This document shows positions 42,158 to 48,202 of a DNA stretch of 64,000 nucleotides, one piece after another (positions within the stretch are counted from its first letter, which is position 1; each line of letters begins with the position of its first letter). The DNA lies in contig OZ244048.1 of the NCBI GenBank assembly GCA_965215265.1, positions 4,704,001-4,768,000 of the forward strand. The letters are read 5' to 3'. Both the position numbers and the translations under genes were made by a program. The stretch comes from Candidatus Poribacteria bacterium (GTDB lineage: Bacteria; Poribacteria; WGA-4E; WGA-3G). A model generated the notes under the pieces. The model did no database searches. It saw only the letters and a list, made by a program, of their open reading frames with translations, and was not told where the DNA came from.

Positions 42158-42820
42158 TTAATCGATCCTGAAGTCGCCCACAAAGACGTTGTTCTCTGCA
42201 CCACCTTGGCTCCATGTCACCGGCAGTGCCCCTTTATCTCTGTAACTATAGACATCAGACTTGCCGACAATAGCGCCCTCAATCTCTGTCAGCGGTTTGT
42301 ACCAAATTTGATGAGGCTGTGTACAGCCGCTACACGGATAGCGATTCGCAGAGAGCGCGAGGACTTCGCCAACCTGTACATCATATTCGGTACCGTTCTT
42401 TTTGAACGTTATCGGCGCAACTTGGGTTGCAACAAGCTCCCCTAAAACAGCAGCGCGTTTCGTCTGCATCAGATGCGTTACTGCTTCACGCTGTTGCACC
42501 GTGGCTCTAATGTCCACATACAATACACTCTTACGGTTCGCAGTCTCAATCGCCAAATTAGCGTCACCACTTACCACTGCAACCACCGTTAAACCGTCTA
42601 GCGAAACATCGTTCCAGCTGCCACTCTGGATATTCCATATCAAGGTCGCCTCTTTACCGCCTTCGACAAACTCTGCACCGAAGTGGCACGCGCCGATGTA
42701 TACACTCGCGGAGCGGGCTTCAATATATTCGCCTCGCACGCTTGGCGCTTCCGTTGCAAATGCAATCATCCCTGCCGCGACCATAAGGGCGAGCATTGTG
42801 AAAACCAGAATCTTTTTCAT
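42158..42820 (-). CDS. Secreted DUF1326-like protein
   Basis: Signal peptide, GEYIEARSASVYIGACH, GSWNDVSLDGL, VDIRATVQQREA. Confidence 0.7.
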   Translation of the reverse strand: MKKILVFTMLALMVAAGMIAFATEAPSVRGEYIEARSASVYIGACHFGAEFVEGGKEATLIWNIQSGSWNDVSLDGLTVVAVVSGDANLAIETANRKSVLYVDIRATVQQREAVTHLMQTKRAAVLGELVATQVAPITFKKNGTEYDVQVGEVLALSANRYPCSGCTQPHQIWYKPLTEIEGAIVGKSDVYSYRDKGALPVTWSQGGAENNVFVGDFRID

Positions 42821-43023
42821 CAGTTTTTCCTCCTTGATGCATTACACGACGCAAAATTCTCATTTCAACTCTGCGTCCGTTGATTACCTATTATACACTT
42901 TTCTCTTTTTAATATGCAACCCAAAAGTTAATCCTCATTTACCCCCATTTTCTTCGCAAGTTGCCGGTAAATGTGAGAAAACCTGTCAGGCACCAGCAAA
43001 ATGGATACCTAAAATCGGGTTAA

Positions 43024-44232
43024 CTAACTGCTCTCTTCAGGAATCACGAGCCGCGTCCGCCCCGTCAGGAGCTCCTGCATCATCGCCTTTTTGATGTCGC
43101 GTATCTTCTCAACCTGTTTCTCCAGTGCAGCTAGCTCCCCATCCATATCGGAGAGGATAGTAACAATAGCTTTTTGTTCCAATACACTCGGGGCAATGAA
43201 GTAAAAGTTTGCCATGTCACGACCATACAAATGAAACACTGTTGTACCTGCCACCAGTTTCATCACCTGATTACGGTTCATTTTTATCGAGTATGCGAGA
43301 AAGGTGCCATTGAGAATCTGCTCCGGGACACGTATAACCAGAATGTCCCCGCCAAGGATAACATCAGGCACGGAGATACAACTTGCTGTCGCAAGCCCAT
43401 TAGGCGTAACATCGGATGCTGGCATAAGGACATCATTAGAGCAAGAAAGCAAAAAGACATCTTCTCTATTCGTGCGATGTAGGACTTCAGTGATACATTC
43501 CTTGTATGTTGTAAACAACTCCCCATAGTGAATACATGGTCTTTTGCCATCAAGAGATAGATCTGTTTTCAACAAACTGCTCGTCCCTTTAAAAAATGAT
43601 GCGATATCCCCTAATCGCTTCGTCTGCCACTCGTCTGTGAACCCCGGCAGTCGCGTTTTACCCGTCAGCAGTTGCTGCATCGCCGCGAGTTTTATCGCCT
43701 GCTTCTTTGCAATCAGCGCCTCCAACGAGTTGATGAGTCCATCCACATCCGATAAGACTTCCGCGATGGCAGCTTGTTCTTTTATATTTTCAGGAAAACG
43801 AACAACCATCCCACGGAATTTTGGCAGGCTTATGACATACCGCGTTCCACTCCCATCACACTCTCTGCTGGCTTGATCGAGGAATCCCTTCGTGTCAAAA
43901 ACATAAGCACGAAAGCGAAGGTCCCAATTCGTTTTCAAACGCAACCGGATAACGTGATAACTATAAACACCATCCGGAATATCCTCCATTGCTACCGCAC
44001 AGCGACCTATATCTTCACGTATCTCCGAGGAGGGCGTGAAGAAAATATCACCCTTTTCAACTGCAAAGCGCCGAACCTGATCCGGTTTCGCTGTAACATA
44101 GTGCGTCAAATCTTTTGAATACAAAAAGGTCTTGTTGTAGACATCAAGATAGTTCACAAGCCGGACAGGCAACTCATCACGACTCACTTTTTTGTTAACT
44201 CCAGTTCCTGTTATGTCACCAATTTCCCCCAA
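43024..44232 (-). CDS. hsdS: Type I R-M specificity subunit (5' end anomalous; coupled ATG at 44329 is out of frame)
   Basis: Two TRDs, each followed by the conserved EQxAI...D...MQxLLTG region. Confidence 0.92.
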   Translation of the reverse strand: MGEIGDITGTGVNKKVSRDELPVRLVNYLDVYNKTFLYSKDLTHYVTAKPDQVRRFAVEKGDIFFTPSSEIREDIGRCAVAMEDIPDGVYSYHVIRLRLKTNWDLRFRAYVFDTKGFLDQASRECDGSGTRYVISLPKFRGMVVRFPENIKEQAAIAEVLSDVDGLINSLEALIAKKQAIKLAAMQQLLTGKTRLPGFTDEWQTKRLGDIASFFKGTSSLLKTDLSLDGKRPCIHYGELFTTYKECITEVLHRTNREDVFLLSCSNDVLMPASDVTPNGLATASCISVPDVILGGDILVIRVPEQILNGTFLAYSIKMNRNQVMKLVAGTTVFHLYGRDMANFYFIAPSVLEQKAIVTILSDMDGELAALEKQVEKIRDIKKAMMQELLTGRTRLVIPEESS

Positions 44233-44325
44233 TCGCTTCGTCTGCCACGCCCCGCTGAACCGCTTTGGGGAGGGCTTGAAATCACGCGAACTGTCCGACT
44301 CACACGGAGCTTGGGTTGTGTTTGC

Positions 44326-46875
44326 TCATATCCCTGTCCACTCTATCCCCATATTTTTCAGATGCACTTCCAGCTGCGCGCTGAACGCTGACACTTTGAC
44401 GGCTAATTCTCGCAACGGCATCGCATAACGCCCCGCCAACCCCTGCACACTCCCCGTCAACGCTTGCGTCACCCCTTCTATTTCCGCCTCAATCGCCCCA
44501 TGGATACTGGCTAACCACTTCCCTTCCACTACCAACGTCTTAATCTCTATTTCGCGCAGCTCCGCATACTTCCCAAGCACCGAAACCGCCAGCGCCTCTG
44601 ATGTCTCTTTCTGCAGCCGCTGCAGGCGCGTCTCCTCCCCTATCAGCTGCAGATACTCATAAAGAACGTCCAATTCCGCAAACAGACACCCGGCATCCTT
44701 CACGCCCTTCGTCCAGGCGCAAGCACCGAAACTCGCTTTCTTAATCGCTTTCGCCTGTTCAGACTCAGCAGTGCCTTCAGCAAACTCCCTCAAAATAATG
44801 TCCCTATACTCCATCACGCGCTGTAGCACATTCCCCTTGCTTATGCCTCGCGCCCCTTCAAGCCCAGCCAGCGCACCACCCTCTGCGGCGTGTTCCTCAA
44901 CGAACGCCTCAACTTCCTGCGCTGCCCTTTCATGCGACGCTTGGAGGCACTCTATAGCCGCCTGCTCATCCGAAAAGTAGCGTGCAACAATCAGACCCGG
45001 CGGTATCAGATCCAGCTTATATTTCTTGCGCTTGACGACGAGGTCCGGTGCCTCCTTGATCCGCTTATCCTGAATCAGCGCGCGCGGTTTCACCCCTTCA
45101 CGCCACCCCTCGGCAGCGATAAGATACACATCGTCCTGCATCACCGCTTCCCAATAATCCATCAATCCTTGGTAGACATCATACGCATCCAGCAGCGGCG
45201 CGTCTGCAAAGTACGTCAGTAAATCCGCAGACAACGCATCAATTACCGCTTTAGGCGATGTCCCTACCTCAATGCCAAACAGACGCCGCGTGTGAACCTC
45301 ACGCCAAGCGTGAAAACACCTCTCAACCCCCCGCCGGTAAACTTCTAACTCATGATGTCCTACTATCGTGCTTTTCACTTCTTCTGCTTCCACGCGCACA
45401 TCGCTATAGCCCGGCCGGATGCCACTCTCAAACAACTCCTCACGTAATGTCGGGAATACCTTCCAATACCCCTCCAAGCTGGCAAGCTCACTCTCAGGAA
45501 TCCCACCGTTCAGGTGGGCATCCAAGTCATGCAAATCTTCCGCCTCGCTCGCATCTAGATAGCGCGGGATGTTCAGATTGTAGGCGTTCGCGGCACTCGC
45601 AATCTCAGACACGGGCACCAGCCGCGCATAACCCGCCATCTCCCGCTGTTCGGTGAACACCCTCACTATTTTATCAATATCTCGCGCACGCAGCCTATTC
45701 TTGTTACCCGCCTTCAGGAACCCCCGGCTCGCATCTATCAGGAAGATGCCACGGCGCGCAGGCGCCTTCTCCTTGTCAATAACCAGAATACACGCGGGAA
45801 TGCCGGTACCGTAGAACAGATTCGCAGGCAACCCGATTATCCCCTTGATGAACCCACGCTTGACCAACGCTTTCCGAATCTCCCCTTCTCTATTCCCTCT
45901 AAACAACACGCCATGCGGCAAGATTATCGCCCCCTTCCCGTTGCTCTTCAACGAGGCGAGGAAATGGAGCAGAAAAGCATAATCTCCATTCTTCGCAGGC
46001 GGCACTCCATACGCAAAACGGCCATAAGCGTCATGCACAGGATTCAGCCCGTTTGACCACGCTTTGTCCGAGAACGGCGGATTCGCAACCGCAAAATCGA
46101 ACGTCTTCAAACCATGCTCCGCGTTCAGAAAGTAGGGCGCGGAGAGCGTGTTACCATGCCAGAGCTCCGCCGTCGCCGTATCGTGCAAAATCATGTTCAT
46201 CCTGGCCAGCGCGTAAGTCGCATGATCCTTCTCTTGTCCGTAAACCGACAACCCCCGCGGCGCCTCCGCATTTGCCCTCAGCAACAGAGACCCGGAGCCA
46301 CACGCTGGATCATAGACAGTCCTATATTGGGGCGTGTCTGGGCCGATGCCGATAACTTTTGCCACTACGCGCGACACTTCCGCAGGGGTGTAGAATTGTC
46401 CCTTACTCTTCCCTGACTCCGTCGCGAAATGCCGCATCAAATACTCATACGCGTCACCCAGCAGATCCTCAGCCGATGCCCTATGCCCCCGTAAATCAAG
46501 CCCCTCAAAAATAGAAACCAGTTTCGAGAGCCGGTCCTGCATCTCTTTCCCTCTGCCCAGTTTGCTCTCATCGTTAAAATCCGCCTGATCTATCACACCT
46601 TTCAGTTCATTGGCGTCTGCCAGTCTTCCGATGATTTTATTGATTTTGTCACCGATGTCTTTGTTCCCCTTCAACTTCACCATATCGGAGAACCCCCCGC
46701 CAGGGGGAACCACAATCAGCGTCGCATCCCCAGGCACTGCCGCCTTATCCGACACAGACTTCAGGAAAAGCAGTGTCAGCACATAGTCTTTGTATTGTGA
46801 TGCGTCCATCCCACCGCGCAGCTCATCGCAGCTCGCCCATAGAGACGCGTAAAGTTGTGATTTCTTTATTCCCAT
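44326..46875 (-). CDS. hsdM: Type I R-M methyltransferase subunit
   Basis: LWASCDELRG, GQFYTP, YDPACGSG, ANPPF, HGVLFRG, YNLNIPRY. Confidence 0.95.
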   Translation of the reverse strand: MGIKKSQLYASLWASCDELRGGMDASQYKDYVLTLLFLKSVSDKAAVPGDATLIVVPPGGGFSDMVKLKGNKDIGDKINKIIGRLADANELKGVIDQADFNDESKLGRGKEMQDRLSKLVSIFEGLDLRGHRASAEDLLGDAYEYLMRHFATESGKSKGQFYTPAEVSRVVAKVIGIGPDTPQYRTVYDPACGSGSLLLRANAEAPRGLSVYGQEKDHATYALARMNMILHDTATAELWHGNTLSAPYFLNAEHGLKTFDFAVANPPFSDKAWSNGLNPVHDAYGRFAYGVPPAKNGDYAFLLHFLASLKSNGKGAIILPHGVLFRGNREGEIRKALVKRGFIKGIIGLPANLFYGTGIPACILVIDKEKAPARRGIFLIDASRGFLKAGNKNRLRARDIDKIVRVFTEQREMAGYARLVPVSEIASAANAYNLNIPRYLDASEAEDLHDLDAHLNGGIPESELASLEGYWKVFPTLREELFESGIRPGYSDVRVEAEEVKSTIVGHHELEVYRRGVERCFHAWREVHTRRLFGIEVGTSPKAVIDALSADLLTYFADAPLLDAYDVYQGLMDYWEAVMQDDVYLIAAEGWREGVKPRALIQDKRIKEAPDLVVKRKKYKLDLIPPGLIVARYFSDEQAAIECLQASHERAAQEVEAFVEEHAAEGGALAGLEGARGISKGNVLQRVMEYRDIILREFAEGTAESEQAKAIKKASFGACAWTKGVKDAGCLFAELDVLYEYLQLIGEETRLQRLQKETSEALAVSVLGKYAELREIEIKTLVVEGKWLASIHGAIEAEIEGVTQALTGSVQGLAGRYAMPLRELAVKVSAFSAQLEVHLKNMGIEWTGI

Positions 46876-46920
46876 ATCTCAATGCCTATCCTTACTGGAT
46901 GCTTTGACCTGATTACAAGC

Positions 46921-47057
46921 AATTCTTCAATTGTTCGCCGGTTTTCGATGTCTGCCTTTCCTTGAATCAATGGCAGTCCCTCGGCGTGTTGGTTGGTGAC
47001 AGTCCCATCATAATAGCAGCAAGGTGACTAAGCGTTTTTTCAGTCCACTCGTCGCTG
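46921..47057 (-). pseudogene. Frameshifted remnant of the start of an extra HsdS target-recognition domain
   Basis: Hand translation gives SDEWTEKTLSHLAAIMMGLSP, then after a frameshift EGLPLIQGKADIENRRTI. This resembles TRD starts (compare DEWQTKRLGDIA in the intact hsdS). Confidence 0.7.
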
Positions 47058-47350
47058 GTTTCGATTTCAAATTGGTTCGATTAAAAGATTGAATGGAGAG
47101 AATTCTCAATCGTAGTGAACGGAGTTTTGATTCCAAATTGATTCGATTAAAAGTAGGTTAGCACCTTATACAACACAGAGGATTCTTTGTTTTAATTCCA
47201 AATTGGTTCGATTAAACGTCTAAAACTGATATATACAGTATACCACATCCTTATGCCGCTTGTCAAGGTAATTTTTATATTTTTTTTACATTTCCAAATT
47301 GGTTCGATTAAAAGCGGCCCACCCGCCCAAATCCTTGGTTTTGATTCCAA
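47058..47350 (-). CRISPR. Degenerate orphan CRISPR array, 30-bp repeat (transcribed consensus CTTTTAATCGAACCAATTTGGAATCAAAAC)
   Basis: Repeats at 47058-47087, 47124-47153 and 47189-47218 with 36- and 35-bp spacers. Further partial repeats end at 47314 and lie at 47338-47350. No cas genes in the window. Confidence 0.85.
47237..47266 (-). promoter_or_regulatory. Strong sigma70-type promoter inside the array, facing the repeats and hsdM
   Basis: Minus strand TTGACA (47266-47261), 18 nt ending TGG, TATACT (47242-47237). Confidence 0.7.
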
Positions 47351-47359
47351 GGAAGTAAC

Positions 47360-48202
47360 CTATGTATCCATCTTCCCAAGGCTTGCAGGTGCGCGCGATT
47401 TTCCGACAAGTCCGGCGAGTACGACCATGGTTAAAATATAAGGTAAACTCTCTAACAACTGTGTTGGGATCTGCCATCGGTTCGCCAGTTTTAACGCTGC
47501 AGCAAATCCAAAGAGAAAACACGCGGCGATGCCGCGGAGCGGGTGCCAATTCCCAAAAATTACAGCTGCAAGTGCGACATAACCGCGCCCAGCCGTCATA
47601 CCTTTTGTGAAGTAGTGAACCTCAGAAACGAGGAAACAGCCGCCGACTGCGGCAAAGATACCGCTGCAGATAACAGCAAAATATTGCCATCGAGCACGGC
47701 TCAGACTAAGCGTCGCGAGTGCCTCCGTCGATTCGCCTGCAGCTTGCAACCGCAACCCCCATGGCGTTTTAAAAAGCAGAACGTGACTTATAACCATCAA
47801 AACCGGCATCAAATAGACAAGAAAGTTGTACGAACCGATAAAAGGAAATTGCCAATAGGGAAGCCCACTGACGCGCCCGGAAGTAGGTAAGATAAACTCT
47901 GTAATACCCAACGCCAAAATGTTAATCGCAATCCCGCTAACGATCTGCTCCGCATGAAATGTAACAGAGGCGACAGCGTGTAACAACCCTAATGCCGCAC
48001 CGAAACAGAGGCCCACCATTAAACCACACCACGGTGAACCGAAGCCCTGGGTGCCGATAACGTAACCAAACGCACCGATGAGCATCATGCCTTCTAGGGC
48101 GATGTTAATCACGCCAGAACGTTCAGAGTAAATACCGCCAAGCGCAGCAAATCCCAGGGGTGTTGACATCCGCAGTGTCATTGGAATTAATTCAAGAATC
48201 AT
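47360..48202 (-). CDS. Nucleoside/simple-sugar ABC transporter permease
   Basis: SERSGVINIALEGMM, GLRLQAAGE, GRGYVALAAVIFG. Confidence 0.9.
   Translation of the reverse strand: MILELIPMTLRMSTPLGFAALGGIYSERSGVINIALEGMMLIGAFGYVIGTQGFGSPWCGLMVGLCFGAALGLLHAVASVTFHAEQIVSGIAINILALGITEFILPTSGRVSGLPYWQFPFIGSYNFLVYLMPVLMVISHVLLFKTPWGLRLQAAGESTEALATLSLSRARWQYFAVICSGIFAAVGGCFLVSEVHYFTKGMTAGRGYVALAAVIFGNWHPLRGIAACFLFGFAAALKLANRWQIPTQLLESLPYILTMVVLAGLVGKSRAPASLGKMDT

Follow-up and report, generated by a model that had tools for sequence, protein, structure and literature searches.

Orphan CRISPR arrays and split type I restriction-modification (R-M) systems are both already known. PMC13142298 deals with an isolated I-F array of Pseudomonas aeruginosa, and the preprint of Shmakov et al. 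(10.1101/2023.03.03.530964) proposes that recombination between repeats yields standalone mini-arrays at random, which constitute material for exaptation. In the Sau1 system of Staphylococcus aureus, as presented in PMC3753647, one hsdR serves two distant pairs of hsdM and hsdS genes (hsdMS). The locus analysed here contains elements of both kinds. It lies in a 64-kb window, the whole stretch of DNA under analysis (G000:C1:4704001-4768000, part of one 4.83-Mb contig of a Candidatus Poribacteria bacterium), in which a CRISPR mini-array with its leader precedes an hsdM-hsdS pair on the minus strand. All the coordinates refer to the window unless they are preceded by G000. The junction is probably due to chance: a decaying orphan mini-array of the I-B/III-A system, whose leader was kept, would have been placed upstream of one of three hsdMS modules.

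Like orphan arrays that are served in trans, the window array possesses same-frame repeats (26-28 of 30 positions identical) as well as a leader and promoter of its own, and cas genes are lacking next to it. It departs from them by having just two spacers, mutated repeats and a truncated repeat upstream of the leader; in addition, its spacers do not vary among the strains examined and no protospacer was found for them. Its shortness and its degenerate repeats are also reminiscent of the standalone mini-arrays and CreR-type regulators treated in 10.1101/2023.03.03.530964. There, such arrays are located in or near cas loci and carry spacers partly matching cas promoters, whereas the window array is far from cas and no such match was found for it. 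The R-M part of the locus resembles Sau1, for which PMC3753647 presents a single cognate hsdR and dispersed hsdMS pairs with near-identical M subunits and S subunits differing in their target-recognition domains (TRDs). Compared with what is presented there, the genome studied here contains three pairs instead of two, hsdR has stayed next to one of the pairs, variation is confined to TRD2 and one pair is deprived of its own promoter region.

A mini-array of the genome's own CRISPR-Cas system

A first-pass annotation, made from the sequence alone, had described three 30-nt repeats with spacers of 35 and 36 nt, a near-consensus promoter and a last repeat abutting an hsdS remnant followed by hsdM and hsdS; all these elements were recovered. 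The mini-array occupies 47218-47058 on the minus strand, with repeats 1, 2 and 3 (30 nt each) at 47189-47218, 47124-47153 and 47058-47087, spacer 1 (35 nt) at 47154-47188 and spacer 2 (36 nt) at 47088-47123. The same-frame repeat CTTTTAATCGCACCAATTTGGAATCGAAAC is present 170 times at G000 524243-535573, which is the main array of the genome, and directly upstream of this array lie cas6, csm1-5, a TM1812-family gene, cas8b, cas7, cas5, cas3, cas4 and cas1 (cas2 was not checked). In the main array, a 22-nt core is identical in 170/170 repeats. Each mini-array repeat shows 2-4 changes relative to the main-array consensus (26-28/30 identical), and C11A is carried by all three.

The 66-nt leader (47219-47284, minus strand) matches that of the main array (G000 524171-524236) at 61/66 positions. 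Because of this identity, the promoter located at 47266-47237 (TTGACA-18-TATACT) is a CRISPR leader promoter and the minus strand is the transcribed one. Two further leader copies, at 24 kb and 4319 kb, are 60/66 and 53/60 identical to the window leader.

Genome-wide searches highlighted cas6, cas1 and cas3 only at 0.51-0.52 Mb and at 1.47 Mb, so that the mini-array is an orphan. Inside the window, these searches returned no match for cas6, cas1, cas3 or HSDR_N, the other cas families not having been searched there. The terms Cas-less and hsdR-less used in the first-pass annotation are thus correct for the window and these families, but not for the genome, where an hsdR adjoins a 99.9% identical hsdMS copy (see below) and where the cas6 that the annotation proposed to look for is indeed present beside the 170-repeat array. 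The second cas locus (cas1, cas6 and cas3; G000 1463325-1484420, at 1.47 Mb) adjoins a 64-repeat array of unrelated repeat, and for this reason the cognate Cas6 is the product of the gene at G000 506998-507597. Other orphan repeat loci were found at 24, 935, 2273, 3923, 4319 and 4463 kb, which makes about seven in the genome when that of the window is included; two extra single repeat matches seem to be spurious, each having 4 mismatches in 22. A third type of repeat forms a 27-repeat array at G000 622351-624094.

Both sides of the mini-array bear the marks of rearrangement, namely a repeat fused to the leader, a 13-nt repeat tail and a frameshifted hsdS remnant. On the upstream side, three features absent from the first-pass annotation separate the leader from an ABC-permease gene that ends at 47360 on the minus strand. 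The repeat tail TTGGAATCAAAAC (47338-47350, minus strand) starts 9 nt past the permease stop codon and is followed by a 23-nt pseudo-spacer (47315-47337, minus strand). Next comes a truncated repeat (47285-47314, minus strand), 77% identical to the reference repeat, whose first 23 nt resemble the repeat while leader sequence takes the place of the last 7 nt; homology to the main leader picks up again at ATGT(A/C)AAAAAAA. Judging from this structure, the repeat-leader fusion is a recombination scar. On the downstream side, the hsdS remnant (segment 46906-47057, with the hsdS fragment placed at about 46920-47057, minus strand) directly abuts the exact end of repeat 3, and its other end meets the hsdM upstream region. 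It corresponds to the N-terminal ~50 codons of a TRD, is related to the hsdS of two relatives, L016 and L018 (tblastx E = 4e-10 and 2e-9), and contains one frameshift and an early stop in three-frame translation.

The 23-nt pseudo-spacer was considered as a short spacer, a reading that was set aside, the stretch being the core of a dispersed genomic repeat. Blastn-short matches and a search with the 20-nt core of 47315-47337 revealed 57 genomic sites at no more than 3 mismatches. The core of this dispersed repeat, AAGGATTTGGGYGGGYGGGC, is often flanked by GACGAGATTT and its inverse, and the element looks like a miniature inverted-repeat transposable element. It sits between CRISPR repeats at two places, and the repeat-23 nt-repeat unit seen upstream of the window leader is complete at G000 3923456-3923530.

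Three hsdMS copies and their promoters

The hsdM gene of the window (44326-46905 with 30 nt of shared upstream sequence, minus strand; ATG at 46875) encodes a protein of 849 aa with HsdM_N (PF12161) and N6_Mtase (PF02384) domains and a TIGR00497 score of 273.8 bits for a cut-off of 242.75. This form of HsdM is ordinary, full-length relatives with 58-65% identity being found in many phyla. The hsdS gene (43024-44232, minus strand) codes for 402 aa from a TTG, with two Methylase_S (PF01420) stretches that correspond to two TRDs.

A 3.3-kb segment (46905-43604), composed of the 30 nt of upstream sequence, the whole hsdM and the first half of hsdS, recurs at G000 827216-830528 (copy B, 99.9% identical) and at G000 3824827-3828116 (copy C, 99.5%); the window copy is named copy A. 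The HsdM of copy A differs by 1 aa from that of B and by 5 aa from that of C, and the N-terminal 205 residues of its HsdS are identical at 205/205 positions to those of B and at 202/205 to those of C. The C-terminal halves of HsdS are only 74/199 (A versus B) to 79/209 identical between copies. TRD1 and the central region are common to the three copies and TRD2, which in the window spans about 43153-43603, differs in each. Beyond TRD2, the last ~145 nt of hsdS recur again, at 95-98%. Between copies, divergence amounts to 2-5% in this 3' end and to 0.1-0.5% in the 3.3-kb segment, which suggests older paralogues homogenised by gene conversion rather than a very recent triplication. The hypothesis of a mobile cassette was rejected: when the ends of the three copies were aligned, neither inverted nor direct terminal repeats appeared.

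A complete hsdR gene (1054 aa; HSDR_N, SWI2_SNF2 and T1R_D3 domains; TIGR00348 529.6 bits) adjoins copy B only, which sits 2.3 kb downstream of this gene and of a YgjP-like peptidase gene. Two more HSDR_N genes of the genome adjoin unrelated hsdM genes. As the M subunits are near-identical, we infer that the HsdR of copy B would serve copies A and C in trans.

The promoters of the three copies are distinct. The leader promoter upstream of copy A scores 11/12 with a TG element and is the best of 3 sites in 42700-47500 (mean of shuffles, 5.0). Between 47237 and the hsdM ATG at 46875, consensus scans detected neither a site of at least 9/12 nor a terminator-like hairpin, and a looser scan gave one 8/12 site, in agreement with the first-pass annotation, which had seen no terminator or second promoter in this interval. 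Copy B is preceded by TTGATT-17-TATAAT with TG (10/12), 156-184 nt upstream of the ATG, and copy C by TTGACT-18-TATAAT (11/12), which ends 94 nt upstream of the ATG. Both lie just beyond the shared segment. The homology of copy A to B and C ends about 30-45 nt before the ATG, where the hsdS remnant begins, and the leader promoter, about 360 nt upstream of the ATG, is the only strong site of copy A. Because no promoter of at least 9/12 and no terminator-like hairpin lie between the leader promoter and the hsdM ATG, read-through from the leader would be the most economical route for the expression of copy A, a proposal to which we give somewhat better than even chances.

The 5' region was also considered as a structured RNA or as a member of an RNA family, a reading that was rejected: its only Rfam matches were to CRISPR-DR2, weak and below the gathering score, and the RNA fold of its 371 nt was no better than that of shuffles (z = 0.76). 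Sequence composition gave no distinctive signal.

Conservation of the junction and its origin

The array-hsdMS junction was found in DNA contigs of four studies, 0-0.4% diverged and with unchanged spacers: X1 record 5 (46876-48200, 0 differences), X5 record 11 (46876-47279, 0 differences), X6 record 20 (46847-48200, 5 differences and 1 gap) and X8 record 26 (46848-47217, 2 differences). The four represent strain-level variants. In the sister species G001, the sole other species of the genus, the region 42.9-49.5 kb is missing, and with it the hsdMS pair, the array and the two permease genes; synteny with the window covers 13.9-42.9 kb and picks up again from 49.5 kb, 1.2 Mb away. The CRISPR repeat was found in 0/8 related hsdM loci, and a k-mer screen of 80 loci with hsdM homologues across phyla, searched up to 3 kb, revealed no CRISPR-like array (0/80). 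The positive control of this screen failed at k = 12 and 14 and passed at k = 10. Among its raw matches, L083 is a GC-rich tandem repeat and L102 a 66-nt coding repeat, and both were rejected; the third, L061, is a lone 10-mer and was not inspected. The conservation of the array-hsdM adjacency in relatives, which the first-pass annotation proposed to examine, thus does not go past strains that are 0-0.4% diverged.

R-M-like genes also adjoin the repeats at two other orphan loci, which gives 3 of about 7 with the window. At 2273 kb (G000 2273093-2273200; L030), a gene encoding an N6_N4_Mtase-HNH fusion (2271437-2272909) is preceded on the same strand, at a distance of about 185 nt, by a two-repeat locus that has promoters upstream. 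This gene has its own 10/12 promoter candidate; its family counts 18 matches in the genome and up to 26 in relatives, and repeats were present in 0/11 orthologous loci of the relatives. At 4319 kb (G000 4319418-4319777; L031), a leader copy directly precedes six repeats of another type, CCTTCAAAGCCCCTCGCTTGGCAGGTTAG, with spacers of about 36 nt, after which come a 225-aa HSDR_N_2 gene and three repeats of the first type; in this genome, CCTTCAAAGCCCCTCGCTTGGCAGGTTAG occurs at 4319 kb only. These associations are read as the result of defence-gene clustering and turnover, not of design.

Taken together, the data are best accounted for by the following scenario. An orphan mini-array of the I-B/III-A system of the genome would have decayed while keeping its leader and promoter, and a rearrangement would have set it directly upstream of one hsdM-hsdS module. 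The three modules, which have the same methylase and half of the specificity subunit in common, would share the single HsdR of copy B. Copy A would have lost the promoter region still present in B and C, and because of this loss its transcription would most likely depend on read-through from the leader across the three repeats and the hsdS remnant. Cas6 produced elsewhere could cut this transcript, provided that the diverged repeats are still recognised. On this reading, the junction as such is an accident of defence-gene turnover and not an evolved regulatory design, and the capture of a promoter by copy A is plausible in view of the sequences upstream of the three copies. This corresponds to the mundane alternative mentioned in the first-pass annotation, two decaying defence loci joined by a deletion (here, by a rearrangement), which fits best. 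Of the crRNA-methyltransferase interpretation (crRNA, CRISPR RNA) put forward there, the sharing of a promoter stays plausible, the paralogues having promoters of their own and copy A none, whereas the coupling of CRISPR activity to the methylome is unsupported, the junction being unconserved and the locus full of truncation scars. Some observations weigh against the scenario. The persistence of the junction in four studies shows stability within the species and would fit a useful arrangement too. The repeats at 2273 and 4319 kb, on the same strand as the adjoining R-M-like genes, hint that the association is not random, and pure accident accounts for it only by way of the clustering of defence genes. 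Furthermore, the hsdM copies are too alike for selection on copy A to be read, and plain consensus scans for promoters and terminators may overlook promoters that are weak or do not depend on sigma-70, as well as termination by Rho.

One rival reading is that copy A is silent or nearly so, the read-through dying, for example by the action of Rho, in the untranslated RNA of about 360 nt that precedes hsdM. The module would then be a young promoterless duplicate, or a product of gene conversion, that has not yet decayed; it has no promoter of its own, and its near-identity to B makes its intactness uninformative about selection. We regard this as unlikely, although it keeps a real share of the probability: the leader promoter is strong (11/12 with TG) and the same promoter must carry transcription through the 11-kb main array, the C/G ratio per 78 nt is modest (0.8-2.25), and no intrinsic terminator was found, unlike in the mini-array at 24 kb, where a 9-bp hairpin and a T-run follow the last repeat. 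Conversely, crRNA and hsdMS could be placed on one transcript by design, with Cas6, or the loading of the 5' handle into Cascade/Csm, tuning the methylase. Such an evolved coupling is compatible with a leader that is the only strong upstream promoter, with the lack of a terminator-like site, with the cognate cas6 of the genome, with the retention of the junction in the contigs of four studies and with the two other repeat loci upstream of or around R-M-like genes. It is nevertheless improbable, since neither the sister species nor the 8 related hsdM loci, the 11 MTase-HNH (methyltransferase-HNH) loci or the 80 loci across phyla show the junction; copies B and C have ordinary promoters, as does, in candidate form (10/12), the 2273-kb gene; the junction carries truncation and frameshift scars; and the mini-array repeats have accumulated 2-4 mutations each, to be compared with the identical core of 170 main repeats.

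A regulatory guide locus of the CreR/CreA type, in which the spacers would steer Cascade to chromosomal promoters by partial matches, is very improbable indeed. In its favour, the genome holds a candidate of this kind upstream of the I-B operon (15/17, with mismatches at positions 6 and 12 only), and spacer 1 has an imperfect match at G000 798981-799012 (L034; 30/32 with one indel), in an intergenic region. As a working target, this site was rejected, because the first four (seed) positions are unmatched and the alignment contains the indel. Spacer 2 has no genomic match above 14-16 nt, and the first 18 nt of both spacers reach at best 12/18 in seven candidate regions taken from the locus itself, the hsd promoters and the stretches between cas genes. 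Outside the genome, the mini-array spacers gave nothing significant against a phage collection (best E = 3), the exact 29-nt cores of both had no match in viral contigs, and the whole array with the hsdS remnant had no match in plasmids.

By the chance-junction scenario, the locus is an example of defence-gene turnover in which an orphan array, a Sau1-like hsdR/hsdMS layout and a probable promoter capture are combined. The locus would gain in importance should the read-through be real: a methylase mRNA derived from pre-crRNA would be a natural test of an action on mRNAs by Cas6 and by effectors that bind crRNA, as well as of a possible link between the outputs of CRISPR and R-M systems; the three paralogues, with the same methylase and different promoters, provide a built-in control. 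A stronger version, to which we attach little probability, is that the third hsdMS specificity has the captured leader as its working promoter, so that one of the three methylation patterns would be made only as a pre-crRNA tail, with an output tied to the levels of CRISPR effectors. In that case, a Cas6 cut in the last repeat would leave a crRNA 5' handle on the hsdM mRNA, and Cascade/Csm could load this handle, with the hsdS remnant as a pseudo-spacer, which would link methylase output to effector levels. Should the other R-M-adjacent repeat loci be functional too, this lineage would be reusing CRISPR leader-repeat modules as cassettes for the expression of restriction genes.

Side observations on guide-like elements and hsdS

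Between the III-A and I-B cas genes (G000 ~515.28-515.62 kb; L009:10780-11120), a promoter is followed by degenerate repeats around a 30-nt pseudo-spacer. The first 17 nt of this pseudo-spacer match, at 15/17 positions, a site placed immediately past the -10 of the promoter in front of a 140-aa open reading frame and cas8b, the mismatches being at positions 6 and 12 only. From its sequence and position, the element looks like a CreR-type autoregulatory mini-array.

The imperfect match of spacer 1 has an ECF-sigma-like gene on one side and a LamG-domain gene on the other, and a crRNA made from this spacer would be antisense to the transcript of that operon.

In the interval 44232-44334, the ATG that overlaps the TGA stop codon of hsdM opens just 9 codons, and the same holds for copies B (827 kb) and C (3825 kb). 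The long hsdS frame runs in frame with hsdM past the TGA, and its first canonical start is the TTG, which falls within the conserved RFSGxW...LGE motif that opens the HsdS of a relative, some 10 residues from the beginning of this motif. This may reflect a 5' frameshift common to all three copies, or an unusual start. Finally, an orphan half-hsdS of 140 aa with one Methylase_S stretch was observed at G000 ~1151.3-1151.8 kb (L023:5333-5755); the 3' ends of this gene and of the window hsdS share 94% identity.

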